Origin: Spirochaetia bacterium
GTDB taxonomy: Bacteria; Spirochaetota; Spirochaetia; UBA9216
Direction: 5' to 3'
Length of the DNA stretch: 64,000 nucleotides
Assembly (NCBI GenBank): GCA_963675665.1
Contig: OY776510.1
Span: 512,001-576,000 of the forward strand
Positions 33,203-55,555 of the stretch are shown one piece after another. Under the pieces are notes generated by a model, which made no database searches, was not told the origin of the DNA, and saw only the letters and a list, made by a program, of their open reading frames with translations. Every line of letters starts with the position of its first letter. Positions within the stretch are counted from its first letter, which is position 1. Both the position numbers and the translations under genes were made by a program.

Positions 33203-33792
33203 CAGTCATTCTCCGTTGTCTCTATATTTTCTTCCCCGTTAGCTCTCCAGATACCGGCATCTTTTTTTCTTATAAACTCAAGTATCCGCTGTATTTCATC
33301 AGGAACCTCTTTCTTTTCGGACGCCTGTGCTCCGGCAGCAGAACCTTCAACCGCATTTGATCCGGCATTCATACGTCTCAGGCTGTATTCCAGATTTATC
33401 TTGGCATTCATGCTTTCCGGCTTTATCTGAAGCGCTTTTTTGAAAGATTCAAACGCATCCTGGTATTTGCCGGTTTCAAAATCAAGAACACCTTTATTAT
33501 ACATTGTCCTGAAAAGCAGTTCCGGGTTGCCGGAAAACGCGGCATTCTTCCATTCTCCGGCTGCAGCTTCACCTTCTCCGAGAGCATAATAAACATTTGC
33601 AAGATTATAGCTGATGTAATCAGTATGCACATTTTTTTTCATTGCTTCCAGATATTCAGTATTGGCAGTCTGATAATCTCCGCTGACAAAAGAATTGTTT
33701 CCGACCCAAACCGACAGATATGCGGACGGATTCGAACAGGAAGCGATCAGAATTACCGATGAGGCTATTATGGTTAAAAATATCTTTTCCAT
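33199..33792 (-). CDS. BatC-like TPR protein
   Basis: YNLANVYY, YNKG and AKINLE motifs, ends in DW. Confidence 0.75.
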   Translation of the reverse strand: MEKIFLTIIASSVILIASCSNPSAYLSVWVGNNSFVSGDYQTANTEYLEAMKKNVHTDYISYNLANVYYALGEGEAAAGEWKNAAFSGNPELLFRTMYNKGVLDFETGKYQDAFESFKKALQIKPESMNAKINLEYSLRRMNAGSNAVEGSAAGAQASEKKEVPDEIQRILEFIRKKDAGIWRANGEENIETTENDW

Positions 33793-39790: not shown

Positions 39791-40031
39791 ATCTTTATAT
39801 AACGGATTTTAATAATACTCAACACAATGAGAAATAACCGCTATACCTGAACGCTCATTACCGAAAAAAACGGCTTCGCTTTGCTGCAGATGTTTTTCCC
39901 GGCAACAAGCGTTCAGGCACACCACTTACCGCATGGTGTTGAGTATTTTTCAATTTGGCAGTGTTTTTAACCGCAGCCGGGGGCTCCTGCGCAGGGTTGA
40001 AAATTTTACATCCCGCGCCTATTATCACTGC

Positions 40032-40877: not shown

Positions 40878-40890
40878 GTAGGGACAGGCC

Positions 40891-41724
40891 ATGACGGAAG
40901 AAGAACTTTTAAATGTAGAAAAACTCAAAGCAGAGATAAAGAGATTAAAGGGTATAAAAAAGACCCTGCGACGCAATTTTCAGGATATGGTAGGACTGCT
41001 GACCACGACTATTTCACAGTCAAATAATTTTCTCGGCGGTCATATAAAAAGAACCGCAGTGCTTGCAAAAGCATTTGCGGAATATATGAGATATGACAAA
41101 GACACTATATATCGAATCTATTACGGGGCGCTGCTTCACGACCTGGGAATGGTAGGCCTTCCGGAAAAGCTGATTATTTCTCCGGCAGAATCGCTTTCGG
41201 AAGCGGAAACTGAACTTTTCAGACGTCACACGCTTATCGGCGAAAAAATGATCTCTTCAGCCTATGACTTGCGCCAGACAGCAAAGATTATCCGAAGTCA
41301 CCACGAAGAATTCAGTGGCGACGGTTTTCCCGACGGTCTTGCCGGCTCGGAAATACCTCTGGGAGCAAGAATAACAAGGCTATCAAACGATTACGACAAT
41401 TTCATATATAAAAACAAGATTCAGGCGACCGAAGCTGTTAAACGCCTTAAAGAAAGATCAGGCTATATTTACGACCCAAAATTATGTACGTATTTTATCA
41501 AATTCATTAAAACCAATGTTGAAAAACATGATAATGCATCCGAATCCACCGGAATACTGCTCCGTGATCTTAAAAAAGGAATGTATATCTCGGAAGATAT
41601 ATGCCTTCAGAACGGAATGCTACTTATTCCGAAGGGAGTAATTCTGGACAGTTCGATGCTGGATAAAATCAATTCGTTTGAATCACTGCTTGAAATGGAC
41701 CGTATTGTTTCAGTAGTCGGTTGA
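40891..41724 (+). CDS. HD-GYP domain protein
   Basis: LLHDLG, HHE-FSGDGFPDGL and IPLGARI motifs. Confidence 0.85.
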   Translation: MTEEELLNVEKLKAEIKRLKGIKKTLRRNFQDMVGLLTTTISQSNNFLGGHIKRTAVLAKAFAEYMRYDKDTIYRIYYGALLHDLGMVGLPEKLIISPAESLSEAETELFRRHTLIGEKMISSAYDLRQTAKIIRSHHEEFSGDGFPDGLAGSEIPLGARITRLSNDYDNFIYKNKIQATEAVKRLKERSGYIYDPKLCTYFIKFIKTNVEKHDNASESTGILLRDLKKGMYISEDICLQNGMLLIPKGVILDSSMLDKINSFESLLEMDRIVSVVG

Positions 41725-41808
41725 TTACCAAATATGGGAACCTCTGATATGATGTGACCCATGTCAAGTTAAAATATCCAGGTTTTATCTATAAGATCCC
41801 CCCCCTGT

Positions 41809-42007
41809 CCAGGACAGGAAGAAAGATAGAACAACGTTTATGCGGCGATAGACCACTCTGATATTCGCGGATTGGTTACCGCAGGTCAATGGGATCGTCG
41901 GGAGCTGCCTCTGTCTAAAACCGAGGATCAATATTATTATTGCCTCATAGAGGTGCCGAGGGTTCTCCTTTATCACTGTTGTTGTTCTATCCATCCTTCT
42001 GTCCTGG
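41809..42007 (-). ncRNA. Putative bridge/seek RNA of the IS110 element
   Basis: Nested inverted repeats enclose two loops carrying ACCTCT and GGTTTTAGA (target) and ATTG and ATATCAGA (donor). Ends are approximate. Confidence 0.75.
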
Positions 42008-42031
42008 TAGCTTATTAACCAACTATCGAAG

Positions 42032-43135
42032 TCATGCGACTTCTGTTCTACCTACCATCATTCCCCAAATAAATCCTGATAATTCTCTGGCAACTGCCGT
42101 AACAGTTTTCTGAGGGCATACCCCTCTACGAATCATCCTGAAATATTTCTTACTCAACCTTCTGCCGGCTTTATCAGCATAAGCTATTGTTTCAGCAGAT
42201 TGTCCTTTCCTTCTCGCTGTCAGTCGTTTCGATGGCGAATACCTTTGGTAATGCCAGCTTGATTCCACTAACAGCCGTCGTAGCCTGGAGTTGCCGGCCT
42301 TCGTAATCCCGCCAAGCTTCCGGCCCTCTCCGCTTGAGTATTCTGACGGCACAAGTCCAAGATACGCCATGAAGGATTCCGCTTTTTTAAATCTTCTGAA
42401 ATCTCCTATCTCGCATACAAATGTTAATGCTGTTAATGTCTCTATACCTTTGAAACATCGAAGCCGGGATACCCTTTCTTTATATCTGTCTTCAGCAGCA
42501 ATCTCTTCTATTTTTTCCTGCAACCGTTCAATCTTTTCCTCTAATTCCACAATCGCAAGATAATATTCTTTTAAAACTTCTTTATGCATTACCTGTTCAA
42601 ACTGCAAGTTTTTCAACCAGGTTCGATGCGCCCCTGTCCAGTACTTTTTCCCAATATCATATTTCTTCCCGTTCCTTAGCAGAAACTGTAAGAGCCTCTG
42701 TTTCTGTTTCCTCAAATCAATTTTCATATCGTTACACATCCTCATGTAATCACGAACTGATTCATCTGTGCGTGTCGGTATATTCACCGGTGTTATTTCC
42801 TGATTCCTTAATGCTCTGGCTAATTTGACTGCATCCCTCTTGTCTGTCTTTATTCGGTCTCCGGGTTTCCTCGGCAATAATGATGGTGCTGCTACGTAAC
42901 AGATAATTCCCATATCTTCAAGTAATCTATAAAGTGTAAATCCTGTAGGGCCTGCTTCGTAACAACACAGAATATTTTCTCCATTCTCTTTAAGTCGCTT
43001 GAAGAATCTTTTAATATTTCCGGGTTCGTTCCTGAGCTCTCTTTCAAACTCAGGATTCTGATAATTATCTCTGAATACCGCTACTGCGATTGATTCCTTG
43101 TGGACATCCATCCCTACATAAATTACACTATTCAT
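42032..43135 (-). CDS. IS110 family recombinase/transposase
   Basis: DEDD domain (VGMDVHK, YEAG, KTDKRDA) and GLVPSEYSSG...ITKAGN. GGAGG RBS. Confidence 0.96.
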   Translation of the reverse strand: MNSVIYVGMDVHKESIAVAVFRDNYQNPEFERELRNEPGNIKRFFKRLKENGENILCCYEAGPTGFTLYRLLEDMGIICYVAAPSLLPRKPGDRIKTDKRDAVKLARALRNQEITPVNIPTRTDESVRDYMRMCNDMKIDLRKQKQRLLQFLLRNGKKYDIGKKYWTGAHRTWLKNLQFEQVMHKEVLKEYYLAIVELEEKIERLQEKIEEIAAEDRYKERVSRLRCFKGIETLTALTFVCEIGDFRRFKKAESFMAYLGLVPSEYSSGEGRKLGGITKAGNSRLRRLLVESSWHYQRYSPSKRLTARRKGQSAETIAYADKAGRRLSKKYFRMIRRGVCPQKTVTAVARELSGFIWGMMVGRTEVA

Positions 43136-43236
43136 AGTGGCCTCCGTTCCTTTGTATGTGGCGTGTCTGCGCTTTGCCATTAGCCATTGTGTAGGCTAAT
43201 CCACGATTTTGCAAACACGGCGGTCACTTCATATTG

Positions 43237-43276
43237 TCTAAAACCCCCAATTTAGGGTTTTTAGAGGTCTCCATAT
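43237..43276. repeat. Right part of the REP-like palindrome interrupted by the IS (left part at 41732-41745)
   Basis: ATATGGGAACCTCT plus AAAACCCCCAATTTAGGGTTTTTAGAGGTCTCCATAT forms an imperfect hairpin of about 22 bp. Confidence 0.8.
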
Positions 43277-43314
43277 ATTATTAATTCGATATAATAAAAA
43301 AAAGGATTTTGACA

Positions 43315-45084
43315 ATGTTGTGCGAAATATGTGAATTTGAATGTGATATTCCTGAAAAAGGTACCGGAAAATGCGGAATGTATGAAATAAGAAATGGAGT
43401 CATACAGGAGAGATATCCTGATATGTATCTTATTTCAGTACCCGCCCCAATTGAAGCAATGCCTTTGCTGCATTATTATCCTAATACAAAATTCCTGCAG
43501 GTATGTACTATCGGTTGTAATTTCCGTTGCACCGGATGCGTTTCGTGGCTGTTAACGGAAAATGCCGAATCCATTGATGGAGTAATTGAGACAATAAGTC
43601 CTGATCAACTTATAAAGAAAGCTCTTGATCAGGGATGCTCCGGAATAATGTTCTGCTTTAATGAACCGGCGGTTTCCTTCTTCACTTTTAAGAGAACGGC
43701 AAAACTTGCAAGAGAAAAAGGCCTTTTCACAGGATGCGCTACAAACGGTTATTTTACGGAAAAATCTTTCGTGGAGCTTCTTGAGTATATTGATTTCATT
43801 AACATCGGGTTAAAAGGACATTCGGATAAAGCTTATAGAATTCACGGGGCCTTATCATATAAGCCCATATACCGGAACCTTGAGCTCAGTATAAAAAGCA
43901 AAGTTCATACCGAGGTTTCCCTGGTATATATAAAGGGAATGGAAGATGAAGTCATTGAAACAGTAAAACATATTGCTTCCATATCAAAAGAGACTCCTGT
44001 ACAGCTTATGCGATTTCTGCCCCTTTGCGACACTGATTATGATGACGAGCCTTCAATTAAAGAAGCAGAAATACTTTGTGACGAATTAAGGAAACTACTT
44101 GATTTTGTGTATCTGTTTAATTCCCCCGGCACCGAGTATCTAAACAGTGATTGTCTCCGTTGCGGCAAGCCGGTAATAAGAAGGGGGTTCAACGGCCCCA
44201 TGAACTCAAACGTGACTGAGACCCGGGAAGAAGCGATCTGTGAATGCGGTTACGGCCTGCCGATTAAGGGACAAATCTGCAAGGATAACGGACTGGAGGC
44301 CCTGGGGTTTTCCGGCGGATACAAGAATATAATGGCCCTTGAATTTATTCGGATAATTCTGGCGTTTCTGGGAGAGAACAACAGCAGTACGATAAGCAGG
44401 GTTCTGCTTGAAATAATCAAAACCGATTATATTAAAGACCTGTATTCCAGAATGAAAAAACCGGGAACATATCTCGATACAGTAGATCATTATGCAAGGC
44501 TGGCAGGCAGAGAAAAGGAAGCAGGGAATTTAAGAGCTTTTATTGAAGAAAATGTTGCGGAAATATCTGCTCAGGTTTTAAAAGCAGAAAATCCCCGTGT
44601 ATTTTTTGCTCTTAATCATCCCCTTATAGCTGTTTTCGGGGATAAATTTGACTGCAACCTTGTCGAGATTGCCGGAGGATACAACCTGAACAAGGACATA
44701 AAGCGCGAAGAAATACCGGGAGTGATGATTCCTGTTGAGACGCTAAATAAACTCAACCCCGAAATAATACTGGTATCCGGATCAAACGGGTATCCCGCTT
44801 CGGACGTTTATTCGTTCTATATTGACAAGGGAATGACAGCGGATGCAGTAAAAAACAAAAGAATATACAATGTTCACCCCTATAATACATCGGCTTCCCC
44901 TGACTGGATATTGGGATTAATGTATATTGCCAATATCATTCATCCTGAAATATTCAGTTTCGATCTCGAAAAAACAGCAGATCAGCTTTATCAACAACTT
45001 TTCGGAATCAATTATGATACATTGAACCATAACAGAAGCTTTGACGTATTACGCCTGGAAAGAATAAAAGCGGTACAAAAATAA
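43315..45084 (+). CDS. AmmeMemoRadiSam/PflA-like radical SAM enzyme fused to a periplasmic-binding-protein-like C-terminal domain
   Basis: CEICEFEC...GKCG, GCNFRCTGC, FNEP and TNGY motifs. C-terminal EIAGG...LNPEIIL...AVKNKRIY...ANIIHPEIF. Confidence 0.82.
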   Translation: MLCEICEFECDIPEKGTGKCGMYEIRNGVIQERYPDMYLISVPAPIEAMPLLHYYPNTKFLQVCTIGCNFRCTGCVSWLLTENAESIDGVIETISPDQLIKKALDQGCSGIMFCFNEPAVSFFTFKRTAKLAREKGLFTGCATNGYFTEKSFVELLEYIDFINIGLKGHSDKAYRIHGALSYKPIYRNLELSIKSKVHTEVSLVYIKGMEDEVIETVKHIASISKETPVQLMRFLPLCDTDYDDEPSIKEAEILCDELRKLLDFVYLFNSPGTEYLNSDCLRCGKPVIRRGFNGPMNSNVTETREEAICECGYGLPIKGQICKDNGLEALGFSGGYKNIMALEFIRIILAFLGENNSSTISRVLLEIIKTDYIKDLYSRMKKPGTYLDTVDHYARLAGREKEAGNLRAFIEENVAEISAQVLKAENPRVFFALNHPLIAVFGDKFDCNLVEIAGGYNLNKDIKREEIPGVMIPVETLNKLNPEIILVSGSNGYPASDVYSFYIDKGMTADAVKNKRIYNVHPYNTSASPDWILGLMYIANIIHPEIFSFDLEKTADQLYQQLFGINYDTLNHNRSFDVLRLERIKAVQK

Positions 45085-45097
45085 AAGGAAATCAAGA

Positions 45098-45733
45098 ATG
45101 AAGAAGCAAATGGAAAAATTCAATAAAAAAACAGGCACGGATTTCGACAAGATCTCAAAAACAGTTTTTGCCCCTATATACCCGGTAATTGTCGACCAAT
45201 TGGTAGAACGATGTGAAATCAGCAGGGGAGTTTGCATAGACATCGGAAGCGGAACGGGGCAGCTCGGCATGGCGCTGGCAAAAGCCTACGCTTTTAAGGT
45301 TTACGGCCTTGATTTTTCAGAAGAAATTAACACCATAGCCCTTGAAAATATAAAATCTGAAGGGCTGGAAGGCCGGATGTTGCCGACGTATGGCAGTGTA
45401 GATAAGATTCCTTTCGATGATAATTTTGCGGATATAATAATAAGCCGAGGCTCCCTGTTTTTCTGGAATGATATCGATAAAGCTTTTAAAGAAATTTACA
45501 GGGTATTAAAACCGGGCGGAAAAACATATATTGGCGGCGGCTTCGGAAACGCCGGGCTGCGCGAACAAATTACTGCGGAAATGCGAAAAAAGGATCCCGA
45601 CTGGGAATGCCAGGGCAGCAGGCCGGAGGGGAAAAGCAAGGTGGAAGAATCACGAAAGGCACTGGATAAAATGGATCTGGATTATAAAGTAGTAGATGAT
45701 GAAACCGGTCTGTGGTTTATGATAAGAAAATAA
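45098..45733 (+). CDS. Class I SAM-dependent methyltransferase
   Basis: IDIGSGTG, ISRGSLFFW and IYRVLKPGG motifs. Confidence 0.9.
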   Translation: MKKQMEKFNKKTGTDFDKISKTVFAPIYPVIVDQLVERCEISRGVCIDIGSGTGQLGMALAKAYAFKVYGLDFSEEINTIALENIKSEGLEGRMLPTYGSVDKIPFDDNFADIIISRGSLFFWNDIDKAFKEIYRVLKPGGKTYIGGGFGNAGLREQITAEMRKKDPDWECQGSRPEGKSKVEESRKALDKMDLDYKVVDDETGLWFMIRK

Positions 45734-45739
45734 AACAAT

Positions 45740-46534
45740 TCAGTTCATCAATTTTGGTACACAGAGTTTCAGCTCGCGGTTTGTATCGGGCTCATCCACG
45801 GTCAAAAGACTTACCTCCATATCATAAACCTCAGACAGAGAACTGTCCGTCATCACCTCGGACGGTCTTCCCGTATCAATAAACCGACCGTTTTTCATTA
45901 AAGCAACACGGCTGGAGTAAAGCAGGGCATGATCCGGATAGTGAGAAGTCATCAAGACGGTAATCCCCTGCCGGGCCAGTTGATTAACAATCTGCAGGAT
46001 ATTTGTCTGGTTTTTAAAATCAAGATGTGACGTCGGTTCATCCAGCAGTATTACCTCAGGTTCCTGTGTAAGGGTTCTGGCGATAAGAACCAACTGCCTT
46101 TCTCCTCCGCTGATCTGGGTATATCGATGGTCGCGGTAGTGATACATGCCGACCCTTTCGAGGGCTTCTTCAGCAATTTCAATATCTTCCTGTGAGGGTG
46201 TGGAAAAAAGTTTTAAATGAGGCGCTCTTCCCATAGATACTACATCTATTACTGAGTATGGAAAAGGTGCGCTATGTTCCTGAAAAATATATCCAATCTT
46301 GCGGGCTATTTCAGTTATACTCATACAGGAGATATTGTTACCGTCCAGCATAACTTCACCTGTTTTAAGCTTTAGAGTACCGTTAATACAATTGAGCAAT
46401 GTTGTTTTGCCGCTTCCGTTGGAACCCAAAAGACAGAAGATTTCTCCGGAAGATACGCTCAACTCAAGATTACTGAAAATATTTTTTTCATCATAGCTGA
46501 AAGAGGCATTTTTCAATGCAATTTTAGCTTCCAT
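45740..46534 (-). CDS. Fe-siderophore/cobalamin-type ABC ATPase
   Basis: GSNGSGKTT, ISGGERQ and LDEPTSHLD motifs. Confidence 0.92.
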   Translation of the reverse strand: MEAKIALKNASFSYDEKNIFSNLELSVSSGEIFCLLGSNGSGKTTLLNCINGTLKLKTGEVMLDGNNISCMSITEIARKIGYIFQEHSAPFPYSVIDVVSMGRAPHLKLFSTPSQEDIEIAEEALERVGMYHYRDHRYTQISGGERQLVLIARTLTQEPEVILLDEPTSHLDFKNQTNILQIVNQLARQGITVLMTSHYPDHALLYSSRVALMKNGRFIDTGRPSEVMTDSSLSEVYDMEVSLLTVDEPDTNRELKLCVPKLMN

Positions 46535-46535
46535 T

Positions 46536-47555
46536 TTATCCTGCGCCCCCTTTTGTCTTCCGTAGTATATAGGCAAAATACGGCGCTCCGACAATTGCGG
46601 TCAGTATTCCCAGCGGGATTTCCGCCGCCATCACGGTTCTTGCCAGATCATCAATAAACAGAAGATAAGCGCCGCCGAGAACCAGGGATGCAGGAAGCAG
46701 AACCCGGTGATCCGGCCCAACCAGCATTCGGGCCACATGCGGCATAATCAGCCCTACCCAGCCGATAATGCCGCTGACACATACCGCTGAAGCAGAAACT
46801 ACACTGGAACAGATTATTATAACGCCCTTGATAATTTCTGTATTGATTCCAAGGGCGCGGGCTTCCCTGTCCCCCATCGAAAGGATATTTATCCGCCATC
46901 TTAAAAGTAGAAGTCCGGTTGAACCCAGGAACATCGGCGGGGTTACGGTTATCAAGTCCTTGAAAGAGCTGCCGCTGAGACTTCCCATAAGCCAGAAAAC
47001 AATAGCCGGCAGTTTTTCATGCGGATCAGCAACATATTTTGTAAGTGAAATAAATGCTGAAAAGAGCGCTGTAACAATTGTACCGGCAAGCACCAGCATA
47101 AGCGTTGGGGTAGTTTTATATATACGGCTTACAGAGTATGTAATCGCTACCGCTGCCAGGCCGAACAGCATTGCGAGTCCCTGGATAATAAACCCGCTGC
47201 CGGAAAGCAGGATTCCCAAAGCCGCCCCGAACCCGGCCCCTGCGCAGACACCCAGAATATGGGGACTGACCAGAGGATTCTGGAACATTCCCTGAAAAGA
47301 TGCGCCGCTGATTGAAAGACCTGCTCCTACAAAAAGCGCCAGAATTATCCGCGGCAGGCGGACCTTGAAGATAACTGTTTCTACCGTATCCGCCCAACAG
47401 GGTTCAATAGGGAATATTTTTGAAGCGATAACCTTGATAACCGTCAGAGGAGTTATCGGGTACCGCCCCCAAAAAAGAGAAACAAAAAAAAGAAGCAGGG
47501 GTAATAAAATGAAAAATACTATATTTTTCCTGGACATACAGTTTCTCTGCTTCAC
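46536..47555 (-). CDS. FecCD/BtuC-family ABC permease
   Basis: RLPRI, FQNPLVSP, FWLMGSL and GWVGLIMPH motifs. Confidence 0.92.
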   Translation of the reverse strand: MKQRNCMSRKNIVFFILLPLLLFFVSLFWGRYPITPLTVIKVIASKIFPIEPCWADTVETVIFKVRLPRIILALFVGAGLSISGASFQGMFQNPLVSPHILGVCAGAGFGAALGILLSGSGFIIQGLAMLFGLAAVAITYSVSRIYKTTPTLMLVLAGTIVTALFSAFISLTKYVADPHEKLPAIVFWLMGSLSGSSFKDLITVTPPMFLGSTGLLLLRWRINILSMGDREARALGINTEIIKGVIIICSSVVSASAVCVSGIIGWVGLIMPHVARMLVGPDHRVLLPASLVLGGAYLLFIDDLARTVMAAEIPLGILTAIVGAPYFAYILRKTKGGAG

Positions 47556-48433
47556 CTGACAATCCCGGATGATAAAAATCTTTCCCGCATTCCATCCAGA
47601 CTGTTTTTATTTTTTTCAGCTGAATAAATCGTCGAGAAAAAAGGACTGAAACCGTTAGCTCCCGCCCTGAGCCCCCAGGGAGCAGTATCGGGAGAAACAA
47701 ACAAATCTACATCCGTCATATATATCCTGGTAATAGCGATTATCTTCGACCATTCATAAATATTCGGCGGGGTTATTCTTTCAAGATCGGTATTGGCTCT
47801 CGGCTGAAACATTTGAATCGTAACTGATGATACGCCGAGACTTTTCATCAATTCCAGACCATAAATTATATCATCCTGTGTTTCTCCCAAACCTGTAATA
47901 AAGCTGCTCCAGGTTTTCATTCCCAGATCACGGGCGTTCTTCAGAGTTTCAAGCCTTGCCACAAAATTATCGCCGGGCCTTATCTCCTTAAAAATCTTTA
48001 TATTCGGCATTTCGATACCGCACCAATAACCTTCCATACCGCAGCTTCTCAGCAACTCAAGAGTTTTCCTGCTTAACGGACCAAAGAACCCGTAAACCTC
48101 AAAATTTGCAGTATCTTTTATCAGTTTCAGGTAATCATAAAAATAATCAGGAAGCTCATATCCCATCCATCCCGAAACCATATGTACCCTGTGAATTCCC
48201 TGCTTATTTCCATTCAGAACTCTCTCAATGATGTTTTCTTTTGGATTTATTCTGTTATATTCATCATCCAATGGAGACAGGGATTTCCATGTACAATGCC
48301 GACAGAGCGGTTTGATATTGCAAACGGTTGTAACCGGCATTGGAGAACAGTATACAGTTTCCTTTTTCTCAGCTACTTCTCTTGCCCTTTTAAAAAGAGA
48401 ATCGGCATCTTCTTGAAACAGACTCTTTAGCAT
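47552..48433 (-). CDS. BioB/HcgA-like radical SAM protein with CX5CX2C motif
   Basis: TTVCNIKPLCRHC, GIE...FKEIRPG, ITGLGET and GLRAGAN motifs. Start moved to MLKSL. Confidence 0.8.
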   Translation of the reverse strand: MLKSLFQEDADSLFKRAREVAEKKETVYCSPMPVTTVCNIKPLCRHCTWKSLSPLDDEYNRINPKENIIERVLNGNKQGIHRVHMVSGWMGYELPDYFYDYLKLIKDTANFEVYGFFGPLSRKTLELLRSCGMEGYWCGIEMPNIKIFKEIRPGDNFVARLETLKNARDLGMKTWSSFITGLGETQDDIIYGLELMKSLGVSSVTIQMFQPRANTDLERITPPNIYEWSKIIAITRIYMTDVDLFVSPDTAPWGLRAGANGFSPFFSTIYSAEKNKNSLDGMRERFLSSGIVR

Positions 48434-48469
48434 ATCGTATTCAATCCTTAAAAATTTAACTTTCAAACA

Positions 48470-48502
48470 ACTCACCGGGGTAAGACTGGTTACCCGGTGA
48501 GT
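48470..48502 (-). other. Intercistronic stem-loop after the binding-protein gene
   Basis: ACTCACCGGGGTAA...TTACCCGGTGAGT. Confidence 0.6.
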
Positions 48503-48511
48503 AATCCGTTG

Positions 48512-49648
48512 TTATACTGTTGTTTCCGGCCCCAGGTGCTTCAGGATCCTGTCAGTTTCCTCATCACTGAGTTTGTAATTGTAAAACCTGGAATAGAATT
48601 CCTGTATCTCTTTTTCAATATTTAGATCTTTAAACTTATCCGGGTGAAGAATCTTGGCCATCCACATCACCTCAAGAATCACTTCTGAACCGGCGTCCCA
48701 GAAAAAAGCTCCCATCGGAGTTACATAAATTTCTCCGTTTTTTACAGCGCTTACTTTATCGAACCTGCCGTCTTCCTCGATTAGTGATATAAATGATTCA
48801 AGAGGTGATTCCGAGCTTTCTCCGGAATGCTCCAGAATAATAACTTCGGGATCCCATTTCATGAAATCTTCGTAATTAACATCTGCCGGCCATGTACCGG
48901 GCAGCTCCTTATGAACACAGAGGCCTCCCGCTTTATCTATCAAACTGGGAGTATTTGAATACTTTGTCTGAGCTTTCATCAAAGATCCATGGGCGCAATA
49001 CACCCGGGGCCTTTCACTATTCGGAATCTGTTCGGTAACAGTAGTAATCATTGCCAGTTTCTCATCGAAATAATCACAATATTCCCGGCCGATTTTTATC
49101 TCTGCTTCACCCAGAGTTTCCGCATATACCATAACCTGATCTTTCATATTAGCCAGGTCCTGTACGGCATCTTCCCCGGGATAAACACCAACTACTGATA
49201 TGCCGATGTTCTGCATTTCTTCAACGGCATCGACATTCGTCCAGAAGAAAACAACATCCGGATCAATTTTTAAAAGTTCTTCAACATTTACCTGTTTTGC
49301 TTTCGCGATTGTTGTAGGAACTTCATCTATTCGTGAACACATTACACTCAACCATGGCCAGTAAGTTTTGTGAAATCCCGAACAAAGAACTATCTTGTCC
49401 TCAGCCCCCAGCAGCGCAACCTTTTCATATGCACAGCCGTAAAGGGCTGCAACCCTGTCTACTTCATAGGGGATGGTGAGAATATCACCGTCGAGATTTG
49501 TAACTTCTCTGGTTGTCGGTAACTGCTCTTCCTCTGCCGCCGGAGCTGAAGCCGGGGCTTCTTCTTTGGCACTGCAGCCAAGGATTGTATTTATAATTAG
49601 AACAGATATGATGATTATTAAACATGATTTATTATTTCTTTTAAACAT
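48512..49648 (-). CDS. Fe/B12-type ABC substrate-binding lipoprotein
   Basis: Lipobox ILGC, NVEELLKIDPDVV, AVKNGEIY and MAKILHPDKF. GGAG RBS before MFKRN. Confidence 0.9.
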   Translation of the reverse strand: MFKRNNKSCLIIIISVLIINTILGCSAKEEAPASAPAAEEEQLPTTREVTNLDGDILTIPYEVDRVAALYGCAYEKVALLGAEDKIVLCSGFHKTYWPWLSVMCSRIDEVPTTIAKAKQVNVEELLKIDPDVVFFWTNVDAVEEMQNIGISVVGVYPGEDAVQDLANMKDQVMVYAETLGEAEIKIGREYCDYFDEKLAMITTVTEQIPNSERPRVYCAHGSLMKAQTKYSNTPSLIDKAGGLCVHKELPGTWPADVNYEDFMKWDPEVIILEHSGESSESPLESFISLIEEDGRFDKVSAVKNGEIYVTPMGAFFWDAGSEVILEVMWMAKILHPDKFKDLNIEKEIQEFYSRFYNYKLSDEETDRILKHLGPETTV

Positions 49649-49832
49649 TATCTTCACTCCATAATTTCCTGATATAAAAATAAAAAACATTTCTTTTTCT
49701 GCCTGAGGGTTTTAGATCAACCCACCCTAATCCGTCACCGGAAAAAAATGAGACAGTGAATAAAGAACAGAGACAATTCGATATAATATGGATAAAAAAT
49801 AATGACTAAGAGCTGTCTATATACATTCAGAA

Positions 49833-49928
49833 TCTCCTTTCCAAACACGGGAGGCTATGTCGTTTCCAACAGAACCCTATCGACGCAAGATCCATGGTGT
49901 AACCGGTAGGACGCAAGCGCTCGGAGTT
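49833..49928 (-). ncRNA. Moco RNA motif riboswitch, short P3-less (Tuco-like) form
   Basis: Minus strand ACUCCGAGC...CCUA...AUGG...UAGGGU-UCUGUUG-GAAA-CGACAU-AGCCUCCCGUGUUUGGAAAGGAG matches the hallmark Moco consensus segments as recalled. Confidence 0.85.
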
Positions 49929-49939
49929 ATTACAAATAA

Positions 49940-49968
49940 ATTAAACACGATTTCAACTGATATGTCAA
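49940..49968 (-). promoter_or_regulatory. sigma70 promoter upstream of the riboswitch
   Basis: TTGACA-N17-TTTAAT, placing the start a few nt before the aptamer. Confidence 0.75.
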
Positions 49969-50000
49969 AGAGTTTCTTTTTTTTAACATGTTTGGTTTAA

Positions 50001-50029
50001 TTGACAGCGAGGTTTGTTTTCATTACTAT
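50001..50029 (+). promoter_or_regulatory. sigma70 promoter of tRNA-Arg
   Basis: TTGACA-N17-TACTAT. Confidence 0.75.
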
Positions 50030-50042
50030 ATGTTCACATCAT

Positions 50043-50116
<74 letters not shown>

Positions 50117-50117
50117 G

Positions 50118-50149
50118 AAAAGGGATTGCCGGCGGCAATCCCTTTTTTT
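50118..50149. terminator. Rho-independent terminator (bidirectional)
   Basis: AAAAGGGATTGCC-GGC-GGCAATCCCTTTTTTT. Confidence 0.9.
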
Positions 50150-50190
50150 ATTCTCAGAACGTTTCGATGGAGTTTTTGAGAAAAGACATA

Positions 50191-51657
50191 TCAGACCGAA
50201 TCAAATCTCAATCGGACTGTTGTTCCTTTTCCGGATTCACTCAATATTTCCAGTGTTCCGTCGTTTTCACTGGTAAATTTCTGTATCAGGTATAATCCCA
50301 GTCCTACCCCTTTCTCTCCGGAGGTTCCTCTTGAAGATTTGTTTAGTGGCGACTGAAGCATTCTTTGATCCACTATCATGCCGCGACCATTATCAATTAC
50401 GCTTAAAACAATATCATCTTCTGTATTTTCGCAAACGACCCTGATCTCACCTGATTTATCGGAGAATTTCAACGCATTGGAAAGAATGTTCCGCATTACA
50501 ACTTTAAAGGTGTCCGGGTCAACATTAATATACACATCAGATTCTGACTCAATATTTACTATAATGTCCTTGTCATCAAACATCGACTGCAATTCAAGAA
50601 TGTTTTCATTTATCAAATCTACAGGATTACAACGTTGTTTTCTTATTTTATGACCAGCCAGTTCCAGCCTGGACCATTCAAGCAGATTATTAAGCAGCAT
50701 ATCCGTATTTTCAAGCGCCTTTCTTAATTCAGAAATATACTCTTTTCTGAGGTCATCCTGCAGCGTATCGAATTCATTATCTACCGTTTTTGCAATTGAG
50801 GTTATTCCTGCCATTGGACCTGTCAAATCATGTGCGATAATTGAGAAAAGATGGGTCTTTAGCTGGTTTGCTTCATTCAGCTCTTTAAAAATACTGTCGT
50901 GAGGCTCTATTATATTTTTCCTGATTATCGCACGGTAAATGAAGTAAAACGAAACAATTTTTGCAAAATGACCGACCATATTTGAAACGCCGTAATTATC
51001 AATGTAAAAAATAAAAGCAAACTCGGACAATATTGTAAAGAATACGGACAAAGTCATATAAATGAATGTATCTTTATCAAAAAACTTCTTTTTTCTTATA
51101 AAATTTATCATTGTTAAAGACAATATTAAAATGATGATATACTCGGATATGATTTTAAATTGTGTCTGACCCATACCCTCTATAAAACATTCCGGGAAAA
51201 TATCCGAAAACAGTATTGAATATGTAAAGAGTACCGTAACAGCTGTATATAGAATGATTGTGAAATTAGTGGATATTTTAACTTTTCGATTGATGAAAAT
51301 TGAACCGCTTAGCAAAGTAACCGACTCAATCATTCTGCCGGCAATCCAGAACTGGTTTGCATAATAATCATAGTCTCTGAAAATCGACATGCCCTTATAC
51401 CCGAAGGTGTGAAGCAAATCGATAAATCCTATGAACAGGTATGCTATGCCGTATAATAAAAGATAATTATCTTTTAGATAGCTTCTTCCGTTCCAGACAA
51501 TTATAAATACGCTGAATGCAATTACAATACTGAATATTTCAGCAAAAAGATGAAAAAGAAGATAGTTACCGAGTTGGATAATATATAGAATCGAAAAAAT
51601 AATTGCCGTAAGTATAAGCAGTTTAATGTTTGAATCAAGCTTTGTACCGGTTTTCAT
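50191..51657 (-). CDS. Membrane sensor histidine kinase (MASE3-like)
   Basis: NYLLFHLFAEIFSI and DLLHTFGYKGM sensor. AHDLTGP, NALKFS and GVGLGL kinase motifs. Confidence 0.88.
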   Translation of the reverse strand: MKTGTKLDSNIKLLILTAIIFSILYIIQLGNYLLFHLFAEIFSIVIAFSVFIIVWNGRSYLKDNYLLLYGIAYLFIGFIDLLHTFGYKGMSIFRDYDYYANQFWIAGRMIESVTLLSGSIFINRKVKISTNFTIILYTAVTVLFTYSILFSDIFPECFIEGMGQTQFKIISEYIIILILSLTMINFIRKKKFFDKDTFIYMTLSVFFTILSEFAFIFYIDNYGVSNMVGHFAKIVSFYFIYRAIIRKNIIEPHDSIFKELNEANQLKTHLFSIIAHDLTGPMAGITSIAKTVDNEFDTLQDDLRKEYISELRKALENTDMLLNNLLEWSRLELAGHKIRKQRCNPVDLINENILELQSMFDDKDIIVNIESESDVYINVDPDTFKVVMRNILSNALKFSDKSGEIRVVCENTEDDIVLSVIDNGRGMIVDQRMLQSPLNKSSRGTSGEKGVGLGLYLIQKFTSENDGTLEILSESGKGTTVRLRFDSV

Positions 51658-51754
51658 ATTTAAATATTAATAGATTGAACAAAAGAATGCAAATACCGGC
51701 AGGAATTATATATCACTACTTTATCTATTCATAACGGCAAGCCGGAGAACCGAT

Positions 51755-52798
51755 TTACAACAGATTCAGTTCGGTTACAGCATACTCTACCAACCATTTG
51801 ATCTCGGACCATTTTATTTTAAAAGGCCTGTCGGTATCTACCCTGTGTACAATCACAATCTCATATTCGGGCAGAACCAATAACATATGAACCCCAAGCC
51901 CGTTATGGTAAAAGGCATGTCCATACCCGGCTTCTTCGGGCACAATCCGCCATAAATATCCGTAAGGGTCTCCTGCGGGGTTTTCTACGGGCCGAATCTG
52001 GGTGCTTTCTGCAATCCATTCTTCAGGTACAATTTGCCGGCCATTCCATAAACCGCCCTTCGAATACAATTCCCCGAACAGGGCAAGGTCCCTGCTGGAC
52101 ATGCGGAAAAAATACGAAGGATGCATCGAACGGGTTTCTTCAACAACATACGTACCGTCGGACGGGACAAAATCCTCCATCCCCAACGGGACCGCAATTT
52201 CACGATAAAACGCTTCAAAGATATCTTCACCTGTGAGCCTCCGAAATATCGTTCCAAGCACATTAAAGTCCCAATTATTATAGTAGAAATAAGTTCCGGG
52301 ACTGTGGCTTCCCCGCGGAGGCCGGGCGTCAATCATCGATTGAGCTTCACCGCCGGCCGGATGGTACACCCCCGATCTGGACAAAAGCAAATCCTGAACA
52401 GTTGCCTGCTGCTCTTTTTGTGTTAATGCCGGTTCAATATCGTTAATTCCAAGATCTGCCAAAGTCAGATTCAGATCGATCATTCCCCGTTCCCTGTAGA
52501 TTCCGTAAAGGGCTCCCAAAAACGGTTTTCTGATTGAGTGGCACATATATTTTTTTGATAAATCTCCGTAAGAAAAAACTTCGCGGCCGCCTTTTTTTAT
52601 AAGAAGCACTGCTGTTCCGATTTTCTCAGCTTCGTTAGCAATCCGGTTATTTACAGTCATACTTTCTTTATCCGGACCAGTTTGAACTTCAGAGGTATCC
52701 GATTTTGAACATGCTAAAAGTAAAAATCCAAAGAGAAAAATACAGTTCAACAAGAAATACCGGGGAGTTTTGGAAAATTTATTTTTAATTTGTCTCAT
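51755..52798 (-). CDS. Serine hydrolase, beta-lactamase family (probable lipoprotein)
   Basis: SIRK (SxxK), YYNN and LLAC lipobox-like. Start uncertain. Confidence 0.82.
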   Translation of the reverse strand: MRQIKNKFSKTPRYFLLNCIFLFGFLLLACSKSDTSEVQTGPDKESMTVNNRIANEAEKIGTAVLLIKKGGREVFSYGDLSKKYMCHSIRKPFLGALYGIYRERGMIDLNLTLADLGINDIEPALTQKEQQATVQDLLLSRSGVYHPAGGEAQSMIDARPPRGSHSPGTYFYYNNWDFNVLGTIFRRLTGEDIFEAFYREIAVPLGMEDFVPSDGTYVVEETRSMHPSYFFRMSSRDLALFGELYSKGGLWNGRQIVPEEWIAESTQIRPVENPAGDPYGYLWRIVPEEAGYGHAFYHNGLGVHMLLVLPEYEIVIVHRVDTDRPFKIKWSEIKWLVEYAVTELNLL

Positions 52799-52930
52799 TA
52801 ATAATACTATACCCGTACTATCCATTTCTTCAAACAATATTATTTATATTTTCTGAACAACGAAAAATCAGCATTTTCCAAAAACGTTCTTGCTGAAAAT
52901 GGAATATAGTGTATCCTTAAAAAGAAAACA

Positions 52931-55555
52931 GTGAATATTCCGATTATGCAATCAAGTTTATATATCCCGAAATCAAGAGCTGATTTGCTGGAACGACCCC
53001 GGTTATCGGAAAAACTTGATAACGCCCTCCCTCTCAGGCTTATCCTGATTTCCGCGCCGGCAGGGTTCGGAAAAACCAGCCTGATAAGTTCCTGGACGGC
53101 AAAACTTCCTTATAAATGCTGCTGGTTATCATTAAACGACAGCATTACCGATTCCATCCAGTTTCTGCGTTATTTTATTTCAGCGCTGAGAACAATCAAA
53201 CCCGATGTATGCAATTCGGTATTATCTGCAATCGAGTCTCCGAAAACGCCCGATGCCCTTTCGGTTTTTCCTTTCGTTGTTGATGAATTAGCCGGAATGC
53301 CGGAGCTGGTATTCGTTCTTGATGATTATCACCTGATCAATGATCAGAATACGGATTTTATACTGGAAAAGCTTATAAAAGTAATGCCGCCGCATTTTCA
53401 TCTGGTAATATCCACCAGGTCTGATCCTCTGTTCTCTCTTTCGCTTTTAAGAGGTCGAAGGGAACTGTGTGAAATCCGGGCCGATCAGCTGCGCTTTTCA
53501 AGAGAAGAAACTTTTTATCTTCTGACAGAACTTCATCACCAGGAACTGCAAAGAACTGAAACCGATTCACTCTACCGTAAAACCGAGGGCTGGATTACCG
53601 GATTGCAGATGGCCCTTCTTTCCCTTGAAGAACGTGAGAATAAAAACGACTTTATAAAGGATTTCTCCGCAAGCAACATTTATATTCTCGACTACCTGAT
53701 GGAACAGGTTCTGAGCAGCCAAAAAGCCGAAATGAGGGAATTCCTTCTCTGCACCTCGGTTCTTAACCGGATGTCTGCAGAACTCTGTAAAGAGGTAACC
53801 GAAAATAAAAATGCCGGAATCCTGCTTGAAGAAGCTGTCCGCTCCAATATGTTCATACAGCCGCTGGATTCAAATGGCGAATGGTTCAGATACCACCATC
53901 TTTTCAGAGAGCTGCTTTTAAACAGATTGAAGATTAATGATAATACGCGCATTTCGGTCCTTCATAAAAATGCCATGCGGTGGTTCAGGTCTAAAGGAGA
54001 TTTGTACGATGCGATTAATCACGGCATTGCTTCAAAGGAATTCGATTCAGTTCTGGATCTCCTGTCAAAATATATTAAGGAGATCTGGAGCAAAGGCGAG
54101 CAACAGCAGTTGTCGATATGGAGCTCAAGAATACCGACAGAAAAACTTCATTCCCGGCCCGATATTCTCGCTCAATACGCTTTAACGCTCTCGTTTGCCG
54201 GACGTTTTTCTGAAGCGGAAGAATTGATTAACGTTTTGAATCAAGCCTCTGAAAACAGAATTACCCCGGGCCTTTTTTCTTTGATAAAGGCTTTTCACGC
54301 AATATGGAGGGGGGAAATTGAAGAAGCCAGATTGTACAATAAAGAAGGAATGAAAAAGCTGGCGGAAAATGACCATATTTACCAGACGCTGGCATATTCA
54401 CTGTACGGCGATATTTGTGTTTTCGACGGACTCATGAAAGATTGCGAAACCGTATGGATTAAAGCTATGGACCATGCCATGAAAGCTGAAAATATTTTTC
54501 TTTCACACTGGGCCGGGGCCAAGGTGATCATCAGCAGGAAACGCCTTGGTAAACTGGCAGAAGCCGGGCAGACGTACAATTTGCTCACCACCGAAAGAAT
54601 CGGTATATCCGATTCAGCGGTAAGCGGGGCATATTATTCCGTAGCGGGAGATATTTTTCTTGAATGGCTGAATACCGACAAGGCCCTGAACCTTTTTAAA
54701 AAAGGCCTCTTTCTAAGTGAGCGCCAGGATTATACCGGAGGGATTGCCTGGAGCTCGCTGTCTTTAATTCACGCAAGGTATCTTCTTTCCGAATATGAGC
54801 TTGTTGAAAAAGGAATTGAGACTCTCGAAAGCAGAATCGCCGGCGGAAGGCTCCCCGACTGGACCAACTCCTGGCTTTCTGCCTGGAAGATCAGGTTTTA
54901 TCTCTATTCGGGCGAAATAAAAAAAGCGGAAAATATTCTCAGAGACAGAAAGATTGAGATATCCGGAAAGATAAGTTATCCGCGGGAAATTGAGCACCTT
55001 GAGCTGGCAAGGTATTATCTTGCAAAAGAACCGGAAAAAGCGTCCGGGGTGATCTCCGTATTAAAAAAAAGATTCAGGGAAATTTGCTGGATTGATCGCT
55101 GGTATGAAGCATGCCTTCTTGAAATCCTGCATCTTAAAATAACCGGGAATCAGGCCGACGCTGTTGACAAGCTGAACTCTCTTCTATCGGCAACAGCTCC
55201 GGAAAAATATTCAAGGCTTTATATTATTGAACGACAGCCTGTCGCTGAACTTTTATACAGCCTGATAGAGCAGAAAAAATCAACAGAAGAAGCGGGAAGG
55301 CTGCTCGAATTGGCGCCGCGCTATGCCGGTGAAAAAAAGCATCAGAACTCCGGTATTGAAGAACCGCTCAGCGAAAGAGAGCTTGCAGTACTGGCAGTTA
55401 TAGCTTCCGGCAAAACAAACAAGGAAGCTGCCGACGAACTTTTCATTTCAGAAGGAACAGTAAAAAATCATTTGAAAAGTATCTTCAAAAAAATGAATGT
55501 CGGCAGCAGAACGCAGGCTGCAGCGCACGCAAGAGCTCTGGGACTGATAAAATAG
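52931..55555 (+). CDS. MalT-like large ATP-binding LuxR regulator
   Basis: APAGFGKT, LDDYH, TEGW, FRYHHLF and C-terminal LSERE...TVKNH HTH. Confidence 0.92.
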   Translation: MNIPIMQSSLYIPKSRADLLERPRLSEKLDNALPLRLILISAPAGFGKTSLISSWTAKLPYKCCWLSLNDSITDSIQFLRYFISALRTIKPDVCNSVLSAIESPKTPDALSVFPFVVDELAGMPELVFVLDDYHLINDQNTDFILEKLIKVMPPHFHLVISTRSDPLFSLSLLRGRRELCEIRADQLRFSREETFYLLTELHHQELQRTETDSLYRKTEGWITGLQMALLSLEERENKNDFIKDFSASNIYILDYLMEQVLSSQKAEMREFLLCTSVLNRMSAELCKEVTENKNAGILLEEAVRSNMFIQPLDSNGEWFRYHHLFRELLLNRLKINDNTRISVLHKNAMRWFRSKGDLYDAINHGIASKEFDSVLDLLSKYIKEIWSKGEQQQLSIWSSRIPTEKLHSRPDILAQYALTLSFAGRFSEAEELINVLNQASENRITPGLFSLIKAFHAIWRGEIEEARLYNKEGMKKLAENDHIYQTLAYSLYGDICVFDGLMKDCETVWIKAMDHAMKAENIFLSHWAGAKVIISRKRLGKLAEAGQTYNLLTTERIGISDSAVSGAYYSVAGDIFLEWLNTDKALNLFKKGLFLSERQDYTGGIAWSSLSLIHARYLLSEYELVEKGIETLESRIAGGRLPDWTNSWLSAWKIRFYLYSGEIKKAENILRDRKIEISGKISYPREIEHLELARYYLAKEPEKASGVISVLKKRFREICWIDRWYEACLLEILHLKITGNQADAVDKLNSLLSATAPEKYSRLYIIERQPVAELLYSLIEQKKSTEEAGRLLELAPRYAGEKKHQNSGIEEPLSERELAVLAVIASGKTNKEAADELFISEGTVKNHLKSIFKKMNVGSRTQAAAHARALGLIK

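Follow-up and report, generated by a model that had tools for sequence, protein, structure and literature searches.

A CX5CX2C radical SAM protein family built into riboswitch-controlled type II ABC importer operons, with a possible role in tungsten and molybdenum acquisition

In a stretch of 64,000 nucleotides from a Spirochaetia bacterium (contig OY776510.1, positions 512,001 to 576,000; hereafter the window), a radical SAM protein carrying the rare cluster motif CX5CX2C is encoded in one operon with the binding protein, FecCD permease and ATPase of a type II ABC importer, and a riboswitch of the molybdenum or tungsten cofactor (Moco/Tuco) class sits directly 5' of these genes. The protein has the fold of BioB and HydE by structure prediction, its family stands apart from both in phylogeny, its place beside importer genes is conserved in other lineages, and one relative is fused to the transporter ATPase. 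Since a riboswitch sensing the tungsten or molybdenum cofactor controls the operon, the module would serve the acquisition of one of these metals, and the radical SAM protein probably marks an undescribed step in that process in anaerobes. The role that we tentatively favour, holding it at somewhat under half of our confidence, is that of a cytoplasmic radical enzyme of the uptake module that acts on the organic ligand of the imported metal.

Tungsten and molybdenum enzymes underpin much of the carbon, nitrogen and sulfur metabolism of anaerobes and, to our knowledge, the two metals enter cells by oxyanion transport through Mod, Tup and Wtp, or by MolBC-A. Here, radical SAM enzymes are built into riboswitch-controlled type II importers, and five of the 11 cofactor-sensing switches (RF01055) in the 5.15 Mb genome of the window precede importers of this FecCD/Peripla_BP_2 kind, which otherwise serves chelates and cofactors. 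If the enzyme handles an organic tungsten or molybdenum complex, anaerobes would acquire these metals in an undescribed chemical form and the rare CX5CX2C branch would gain a second function beside that of HcgA. Our literature searches found no paper joining the Moco riboswitch and radical SAM enzymes, and none on molybdenum or tungsten transport of the kind described here or on HcgA-like or HmdB-like proteins; the CX5CX2C literature, judged by titles and abstract openings, contained no importer-linked bacterial family. Searching for HmdB together with ABC transporters returned metabolomics papers only, a search on the PDB codes 9HRJ, 9HT5 and 9HRP gave nothing relevant, and PMC13119186 concerns a B12 riboswitch only.

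The radical SAM protein and its family

The open reading frame of the radical SAM gene extends on the minus strand from 47552 to 48475 if a GTG start is taken, and the N-termini of relatives match the methionine encoded at 48433, from which the product is 293 residues long. The original prediction of a protein of about this size bearing C-NIKPL-C-RH-C is therefore borne out, residues 38-47 reading CNIKPLCRHC. Radical_SAM (PF04055) matches residues 32-190 with 51 bits (cut-off 29.5) and is the sole domain found by Pfam, the BATS domain (PF06968) being absent. The predicted structure (pLDDT 91.3) has a TIM-barrel-type fold and finds its top matches in HydE, BioB and PylB, with TMq values of 0.78-0.82. 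On the Pfam score, the N-terminal three-cysteine motif and the predicted fold the protein belongs in the Radical SAM superfamily, and the gene can be taken, from its sequence and model, to encode a genuine enzyme whose family has no name.

The family was compared in 27 sequences, namely P0002-P0006, P0009-P0029 and the query itself. Five of them are N-terminally truncated fragments, and C-x3-P-x-C-x-[H/Y]-C occurs in 20 of the 22 that cover the site, with histidine before the last cysteine in 18 and tyrosine in two. The exceptions are P0023, which has a different cysteine pattern, and P0025, which has an unrelated stretch at the site. The motif is not a product of chance. In an alignment of 18 members, C38, C44 and C47 are invariant and C138 is present in 15; no cysteine outside the three of the motif is invariant. 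CX5CX2C is the hallmark of HcgA (PMC10100467), as the original prediction had held, and true HmdB (TIGR03957; P0045, P0047) and HmdB-like proteins share the entire C-x3-P-x-C-x2-C pattern, including the proline at the fourth spacer position. The family has, by structure prediction, the fold class of BioB, HydE, PylB and HcgA, together with the rare cluster motif of HcgA.

Despite this likeness, the protein passes no NCBIfam cut-off, its best scores being 86.1 bits against BioB (TIGR00433, cut-off 225), 83.3 against HmdB (TIGR03957, cut-off 320.9), 66.2 against PylB (TIGR03910, cut-off 348.2) and 29.4 against HydE (TIGR03956, cut-off 254.6), and none of 15 stand-alone family members matched any curated family at E 1e-35. 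In a tree of 59 rows the family forms its own clade with support of 99, apart from HcgA/HmdB, BioB, HydE and PylB, while HmdB and HmdB-like proteins form a separate clade with support of 100; the AU test does not reject a tree in which HcgA and all other CX5CX2C proteins form one clade (p-AU 0.608). These results sustain the earlier proposal of a distinct subfamily that is neither BioB nor HcgA and does not cluster with BioB. An Atlas search returned solely generic 'putative biotin synthase' clusters. CX5CX2C is also carried by 'Megacluster-4-10' of RadicalSAM.org (PMC9477430).

The differences from the nearest known enzymes are consistent with this separation. HydE is the best PDB match both by sequence (55 bits) and by fold (TMq 0.82), and, judging from PDB entries with names like 'Fe(CO)2CNCl species bound HydE', it acts on a small metal-bound ligand, but its motif is CX3CX2C and no hydrogenase genes lie near the gene in the window. 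BioB, with a fold match of TMq 0.78, likewise has CX3 where the window's protein has CX5, and its auxiliary-cluster cysteines are required for function, whereas the window's protein has neither BATS nor extra conserved cysteines for a sulfur-donor cluster. Compared with HcgA and HmdB the protein is about 50 residues shorter, its family typically carries histidine where the HmdB and HmdB-like proteins compared carry tyrosine, and its setting is bacterial, in an operon that encodes an importer and is headed by a Moco/Tuco riboswitch.

The genome of the window (96.4% complete) had no match to HMD (PF03201) or HmdC (TIGR03958) and none to HmdB above cut-off. The original prediction that hcg, hmd and bio genes are missing from the window agrees with Pfam scans of its open reading frames, in which none was seen. 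On the genome-wide absence of Hmd, HmdC and a passing HmdB, a role as an FeGP-cofactor enzyme is rejected. The genome contains a true MoaA (370 bits), so that the protein is unlikely to be a MoaA replacement.

The importer operon and its riboswitch

The features of the operon and its immediate neighbours are collected in the table.

Features of the importer operon and adjacent genes in the window
Feature	Position	Strand	Remarks
Radical SAM protein (CX3CX2C, PFL-activase/AmmeMemoRadiSam-like) fused to cytoplasmic Peripla_BP_2-like domain	43309..45084	+	Convergent
Class I SAM methyltransferase, 211 aa, no curated family reached	45098..45733	+	Methyltransf_11 73.6 bits
ABC ATPase, PF00005	45740..46594	-	111.6 bits; likely start ATG 46534
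FecCD-type permease, PF01032	46536..47555	-	290.7 bits; start overlaps radical SAM stop
Radical SAM gene, uncurated family, 293 aa	47552..48433	-	Motif C38-x5-C44-x2-C47, P42
Inverted repeat, 9-bp stem, 13-nt loop	48471..48501	.	Between binding-protein and radical SAM genes; read directly
Substrate-binding lipoprotein, Peripla_BP_2, PF01497	48512..49690	-	78.4 bits; likely true start ATG 49648 (MFKRNN...)
Moco/Tuco riboswitch aptamer, RF01055, without P3 stem	49818..49938	-	Operon 5' leader

The claim that the radical SAM gene lies inside an ABC importer operon and overlaps the permease start was correct on both counts: Pfam identifies the binding protein, permease and ATPase, all on the same strand, and bases 47552-47555 (tcac on the plus strand) read GTGA on the minus strand, joining the TGA stop of the radical SAM gene to the GTG start of the permease. 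The presence of binding protein, FecCD permease and ATPase in one operon gives the type II architecture of the MolBC-A kind (HI1470/71/72), the molybdate and tungstate importer of Haemophilus influenzae, although we know of no enzyme embedded in that system. The N-terminus of the binding protein contains LGC, read as a lipobox. Its nearest solved chains are 4ovk (105.6 bits), 4hn9 and 4pag, with 4ino and 4ls3, both titled nickel ABC transporter binding protein, as further relatives. HI_1472 (3psa), or MolA, a binder of bare molybdate or tungstate, is related but distant (47.6 bits, E 1.1e-11) and ranks after the first three chains. The link of the window's importer to molybdenum or tungsten comes from the riboswitch. 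Among NCBIfam models, the ATPase and permease come closest to those of heme, corrinoid and siderophore transporters, without reaching any cut-off.

The inverted repeat between the binding-protein and radical SAM genes is followed, in the minus-strand direction, by a T-rich run; a terminator scan that allowed loops of up to 8 nt did not list it, its loop being 13 nt long. Of the two convergent genes beyond the ATPase, the fusion scores 50.8 bits for Radical_SAM, 25.8 for Peripla_BP_2 (under the cut-off of 27.5) and 105 for TIGR04337 (cut-off 220), and the methyltransferase is closest to arsenite methyltransferase (57 bits, cut-off 263) and the DVU_1556 family (56 bits, cut-off 155) among NCBIfam models. 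The module has an IS110 transposase on one side and a gene for tRNA-Arg on the other, as a recently acquired island might, but its G+C content is not distinct.

The leader matches the full RF01055 model (positions 1-135) with 65.4 bits (E 3.5e-14), against a gathering score of 36, and Rfam found no cobalamin riboswitch there. The columns of the P3 hairpin are deleted in the alignment. In the same genome, an alignment, read by eye, places switches lacking P3 before a gene of the AOR family, a TupA-like transporter and the radical SAM operon, and a switch bearing P3 before a ModA-like transporter. This pattern fits the Moco/Tuco correlation described by Regulski et al. 2008 (PMC2408646), whose account of the aptamer ties the form without P3 to tungsten cofactor genes, and on its alignment the window's switch is assigned to this P3-lacking, tungsten-associated type. 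The regulon as outlined in that paper includes MPT genes and 'genes of unknown function' besides transporters of molybdate and tungstate; the word 'radical' is absent from its main text. The riboswitch had been missed by the original prediction, for which it is the decisive context.

Homologous loci in other genomes

Using a five-row family alignment as the query, we compared 12 genome loci, together about 165 kb, and nine metagenome loci. The genome loci contain 10 matches to RF01055 spread over seven of them, where about 0.35 would be expected at the density of the window's genome. In six the switch lies upstream on the strand of the family gene, and in L008 and L009 immediately before it; such switches were found at family loci in five separate lineages. 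Two of the nine metagenome loci have a match. At the gathering score there was none in the other seven, nor in five genome loci (L005, L010, L012, L014, L015), some of these negative loci ending at contig edges.

The family gene directly follows a Peripla_BP_2 gene in the window and in eight of the 12 genome loci, and the compact order of binding protein, radical SAM protein and FecCD permease is shared by the window, L013 (Actinomycetota) and L007 (Dehalococcoidales). In P0024, a protein of 555 residues, an ABC ATPase is fused to a family member; this fusion stands alone, a search for longer or fused forms, itself weak evidence, having found no other. The C-V-P at the C-terminus of the window's ATPase recurs in the ATPase half of P0024.

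Other loci are larger and richer in companion genes. An HmdB-like CX5CX2C radical SAM protein is encoded in five clusters (L005, L008, L016, L041, L046), scoring 114-139 bits against TIGR03957 in L005, L008 and L016, the three that were scored. Methyltransferase genes occur in six of 11 scanned genome loci as well as next to the window's operon; those resembling the window's enzyme have 205-219 residues in L006, L010, L011 and L016 and 272 in L005, and that of L008 is a fragment of 131 residues. Genes of molybdenum and tungsten metabolism are also near neighbours, with MoeA, a MoeA-PBP fusion and a molybdopterin oxidoreductase (FDH-like domains) in L009, XdhC in L012, L016 and L041, and FmdE and DUF364 in L011, L041 and L046. 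In two actinobacterial loci, L014 and L015, no such genes were seen nearby, the former being the one covered by the ORF scan.

The architecture of the convergent radical SAM-binding-protein fusion recurs near the family in L006, L008, L009, L012, L016, L041 and L046. A dependence on this 591-residue protein is unsupported, since a full-length fusion was found in G043 alone of five family-bearing genomes; G041, G042 and G044 gave just matches of the size of the radical SAM domain (29-32% identity) and G045 gave none. Vertical inheritance is similarly unsupported, no family member being found in the 40 genomes of relatives searched, two of which gave matches at E 1e-30 that are CX3CX2C proteins.

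Possible roles of the enzyme

In the role that we favour, the radical SAM protein would be made together with the importer, in an operon that the riboswitch turns off on sensing the tungsten or molybdenum cofactor; the metal is named as one of these two because this riboswitch heads the operon. The cargo would be an organic complex of the metal and not the bare oxyanion. Working in the cytoplasm beside the transporter ATPase, the enzyme would direct its 5'-deoxyadenosyl radical at the small organic ligand arriving with the metal, which may thereby be freed or converted for cofactor synthesis. It counts against the proposal that HI_1472, a relative of the binding protein, takes bare molybdate or tungstate, for a radical enzyme would have no obvious substrate if the cargo were the oxyanion here too. 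The loci without a riboswitch, the lack of molybdenum or tungsten genes seen near the family gene in L014 and L015, and the occurrence of the ATPase fusion in one protein alone also weigh against it.

The enzyme could instead make a ligand, synthesising in the manner of HcgA a small chelating heterocycle that is released as a metallophore for tungsten or molybdenum and retrieved as the complex by the importer, either on its own or with the HmdB-like protein, methyltransferase and DUF364 protein of the larger clusters. We regard this as possible, if on balance somewhat unlikely. The shared motif, proline included, and the unrejected joint clade with HcgA speak for it, as do the HmdB-like proteins in five clusters and the recurrent methyltransferases, given that HcgA forms 6-carboxymethyl-5-methyl-4-hydroxy-2-pyridinol and HcgC then methylates this pyridinol (PMC10100467); one DUF364 enzyme uses a SAM derivative (PMC12930334), and control by the end product would resemble that of iron-regulated siderophore clusters. 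Against it, the compact operons of the window, L013 and L007 contain neither an exporter nor further biosynthetic genes, the translational coupling to the permease and the ATPase fusion better suit an enzyme on the transporter side, and no tungsten or molybdenum metallophore of anaerobes was found in our literature searches. A more specific form, in which the family, the HmdB-like paralogue and the methyltransferase together make a pyridinol-type chelator whose complex is imported, with feedback from the cofactor through the riboswitch, we consider less likely still; if true, it would be the first dedicated tungsten or molybdenum metallophore of anaerobes, and it would share with the FeGP pathway of methanogens a common origin in one ancient chemistry for building metal-binding heterocycles. 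None of the observations discriminates between breakdown and synthesis of a ligand. The interpretation in the original prediction is supported as regards a distinct subfamily; that this subfamily acts on or makes a small metal-binding heterocycle is a hypothesis.

Whole cofactors, B12 and heme among them, are known cargoes of type II importers, and by analogy with BtuFCD and the B12 riboswitch the operon might salvage a molybdopterin-type compound that the radical SAM protein remodels. This would suit a riboswitch that senses the finished cofactor, and the authors of a DUF364 structure proposed a pterin- or flavin-like ligand (PMC2954201). We nevertheless judge it improbable, because the true MoaA means that de novo synthesis is present, the operon has no pterin-handling gene, and those structures closest to the binding protein that are named for a ligand are binders of iron, nickel and molybdate, not of cofactors. 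That the protein is simply BioB in divergent form, or HcgA itself, is scarcely credible: BioB and HmdB are its best NCBIfam matches and the genome has no other BioB above cut-off, but the scores lie far under the cut-offs, the clade is separate, BATS and the auxiliary-cluster cysteines are missing and the genome lacks Hmd, HmdC and a passing HmdB, on which grounds we reject it. It is very improbable, too, that the operon imports iron, heme or B12 with an anaerobic ligand-degrading radical enzyme like ChuW and that its link to molybdenum and tungsten is incidental. The sub-threshold transporter matches noted above and a Fur-family gene on the opposite strand in L006 would favour such a reading; yet the leader carries a Moco/Tuco and not a cobalamin riboswitch, this switch recurs across the five lineages, molybdenum and tungsten genes are among the neighbours, and ChuW is HemN-like, whereas the radical SAM protein of the window is of the BioB/HydE class.

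A radical SAM family beside HcgA

The radical SAM (rSAM) reading frame runs from 47552 to 48475 on the minus strand with GTG as its first codon, and the Met at 48433 is the start seen in relatives, which gives the protein of about 293 aa (exactly 293) that the original prediction had described; its CX5CX2C motif (CNIKPLCRHC, residues 38-47) and its GTGA overlap, the rSAM stop with the GTG start of a FecCD permease frame at 47552-47555, were likewise found. The protein matches Pfam Radical_SAM (51 bits, cut-off 29.5), a Pfam scan detected no BATS domain in it, and its AlphaFold model (pLDDT 91.3, pTM 0.88) is matched structurally by HydE (TMq 0.82), PylB (0.79) and BioB (0.78). All of its NCBIfam scores lie below cut-off: BioB 86 bits (cut-off 225), HmdB 83 (320.9), PylB 66 (348) and HydE 29 (254.6).

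A word-indexed search of 5.8 billion proteins returned only five close relatives, while an exhaustive search of 1.84 billion representatives gave 399 proteins at E 0.001, a number that falls to 55 at 1e-10 and to 21 at 1e-30. A search of 40 genomes related to the source genome found no family member, the two matches at E 1e-30 in those genomes being CX3CX2C proteins, and 15 stand-alone family members matched no NCBIfam family at E 1e-35. C-x3-P-x-C-x-[H/Y]-C is present in 20 of 27 family sequences examined (His in 18, Tyr in two), five of the 27 being fragments without the N-terminus; in two the motif is missing though the site is covered. One of these, P0025, has an unrelated stretch there; the other, P0023 (273 aa), has CX2C-X9-CX3C in the motif region instead of CX5CX2C, which may mean either a variant cluster site or a copy that has lost activity. 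Only C38, C44 and C47 are invariant in an 18-row alignment (C138 is kept in 15 rows), and therefore there is no sign of an auxiliary cluster in the family.

HcgA, also called HmdB, is described in PMC10100467 as having a unique CX5CX2C motif and making the pyridinol from which the FeGP cofactor is built. HmdB proteins (P0045, 559.6 bits; P0047, 338.2 bits) and sub-threshold HmdB-like proteins carry C-x3-P-x-C-x-Y-C, a motif type that they have in common with the family. In a 59-row tree the family forms one clade (support 99), including the fusion P0024 (555 aa), in which a family protein comes after an ABC ATPase, and the motif-less P0036, and stands apart from the clades of HmdB plus HmdB-like proteins (100), BioB (100), HydE (97) and PylB (99); deep branches are weak (69). 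Forcing all 40 CX5-type rows together gave a slightly better tree than the free one (lnL +4.21) and was not rejected (p-AU 0.608). The anticipated distinct subfamily thus stands, with its own clade and no curated model reached, and since it keeps that clade, yet a CX5 grouping is not rejected, the family is, as judged from sequence, a cousin of HcgA and not HcgA.

That the window protein is plain HcgA is very unlikely given its separate clade and sub-threshold HmdB score. Searches of the source genome (a single contig, 96.4% complete) found neither an HMD domain nor HmdC, and no HmdB or BioB above cut-off. Its only other BioB-class gene, a 325-aa frame at G000:C1:3504440-3505372, reaches 85 bits against BioB and 75 against HmdB, short of either cut-off.

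The importer operon and its counterparts

Operon structure was read from gene spacing and strand, and the Rfam scan covered window positions 40000-53000. The riboswitch lacks the P3 aptamer hairpin, which is deleted in the printed alignment, and the inverted repeat might govern how much binding protein is made relative to the products encoded after it.

Features of the window operon and of related loci
Feature	Position	Context	Basis
Peripla_BP_2 binding protein	window 48512-49690	upstream of rSAM gene	Pfam; LGC read as lipobox
ABC ATPase	window 45740-46594	downstream of permease gene	Pfam
Inverted repeat, 9-bp stem, 13-nt loop	window 48471-48501	between binding-protein and rSAM genes; then T-rich run on coding strand	read from sequence
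Moco/Tuco riboswitch (RF01055)	window 49818-49938 (minus)	leader of binding-protein gene	Rfam 65.4 bits, gathering score 36, E 3.5e-14, full model
Possible promoter, TTGACA-17-TTTAAT	window 49968-49940		read directly from sequence; absent from promoter-scan output
Second rSAM, HmdB-like	L005 2382-3323; L008 3942-4979; L016 5795-6778; L041 2595-3650; L046 871-1905	loci with a family gene	C-x3-P-x-C-x-Y-C in all five
Further switches in source genome	G000:C1, L028 ~2.93, L030 ~2.53, L035 ~3.88, L036 ~2.51 Mb	before FecCD/Peripla_BP_2 importers	

The 7-kb module (two rSAMs, a methyltransferase, importer and riboswitch) is bracketed by an IS110-family transposase (42032-43180, minus) and tRNA-Arg(CCT) (50042-50117, plus). 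This bracketing and the patchy distribution hint at horizontal acquisition; the G+C of the module does not differ from its surroundings. Elsewhere in the window, BatD-like, TPR, two VWA, DUF58 and MoxR AAA genes stand in a row (31214-38488, minus) as a Bat/MoxR aerotolerance-type operon, and the presence of LolA and OmpA genes (13989-14687 and 26191-27396) points to a diderm bacterium.

Twelve genome loci with a family gene come from Dehalococcoidales, Syntrophomonadaceae/Syntrophomonas, Desulfosporosinus, Actinomycetota and Propionibacteriaceae/Actinomycetes, and nine metagenome loci were added. Of 126 frames called in the genome loci 106 were scanned, leaving out all 11 of L015 and nine short or peripheral ones. 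A Peripla_BP_2 gene lies within 6 kb of the family gene in 10 of 11 scanned genome loci (the exception is L009) and immediately upstream in eight of the 12 (not in L008 or L009; L012 and L015 are not assessable). An rSAM-binding-protein fusion of about 594-607 aa occurs in five of the 11, and also in L041 and L046, and a class I methyltransferase in six of the 11. Against TIGR03957 (cut-off 320.9), the HmdB-like copies of L005, L008 and L016 reach 114-139 bits.

Genes linked to Mo/W recur in these neighbourhoods: in L009 a molybdopterin oxidoreductase with FDH-like domains together with MoeA and a MoeA-PBP fusion, in L041 again MoeA, XdhC in L012, L016 and L041, FmdE in L011, and DUF364/DUF4213 in L011, L041 and L046. 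RF01055 has 10 matches over seven of the 12 genome loci and is present in two of the nine metagenome loci; in L008, L009 and L045 a match directly precedes the family gene. Several Desulfosporosinus loci are near-copies; independent riboswitch-bearing lineages number about five. P3 is present in nine of 11 riboswitches compared by eye, so the module outside the source genome looks molybdenum-type. No riboswitch was found in L005, a locus of a Dehalococcoidales MAG. There (8938-12147) the family gene precedes a CfbC/NifH-like gene, which scores 337.6 bits against NF033200 (cut-off 402), and a pair of NifD/E/BchB-like genes.

Moco/Tuco riboswitches of the source genome

According to Regulski et al. 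(PMC2408646), P3 is absent from 58 of 176 Moco RNAs, and the P3-less RNAs go with tungsten-cofactor genes. The source genome has 11 RF01055 riboswitches, eight without P3 and three with it (alignment read by eye). Downstream of those lacking P3 are an AOR-family gene with a ferredoxin, a TupA-like ABC system, purine genes, an aldehyde dehydrogenase, a binding protein with a molybdopterin-oxidoreductase-like protein, two other FecCD-type importers (one with a 748-aa rSAM) and the window's operon; those bearing P3 precede a ModA-like ABC system and two FecCD-type importers. Type II importers are therefore controlled by five of the 11. The window's operon probably belongs to the tungsten/molybdenum cofactor regulon.

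The 748-aa rSAM protein opens one of the four other importer operons, and over its first 300 residues it shares 36% identity with the window's 591-aa rSAM-binding-protein fusion. In the 2.53-Mb operon a switch is accompanied by a double binding protein, FecCD and an ATPase; an rSAM match in a 753-aa frame (34 bits to moaA) lies just downstream. Beside the rSAM-binding-protein fusions, the CX5CX2C family is an additional, scarcer part of this tungsten/molybdenum theme. At G000:C1:3452594-3458597 a P3-lacking switch stands before genes for an adenylosuccinate-lyase-like protein, IMP dehydrogenase and GMP synthase, an arrangement that could link the provision of GTP with the making of the cofactor.

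A proposed role at the importer

The enzyme would act on the cytoplasmic face of the importer, because its gene lies between the binding-protein and permease genes, is translationally coupled to the permease, is fused to an ATPase in one case, and because binding protein, rSAM and FecCD recur in this tight order in three distant lineages, with an ATPase gene next in the window and in L013. Enzymes of the family's fold class use small-molecule substrates, metal ligands among them (HydE, HcgA). Together, this placement and fold class lead us to favour, tentatively and at a little under an even chance, a radical reaction of the enzyme with an organic ligand entering the cell alongside W or Mo. 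Ranked next, and rather unlikely, is that the enzyme synthesises the organic W/Mo ligand; pterin salvage follows as improbable, and a role linked to Fe, heme or B12 is very improbable.

This Mo/W setting fits what is written of DUF364: its reported genome context is tungstate, molybdate and vanadium transport (PMC2954201), a DUF364 gene lies inside a modABC operon and is cofit with nifH (bioRxiv 2024.03.05.583561), and a methyl-SAM is the substrate of a DUF364 enzyme (PMC12930334).
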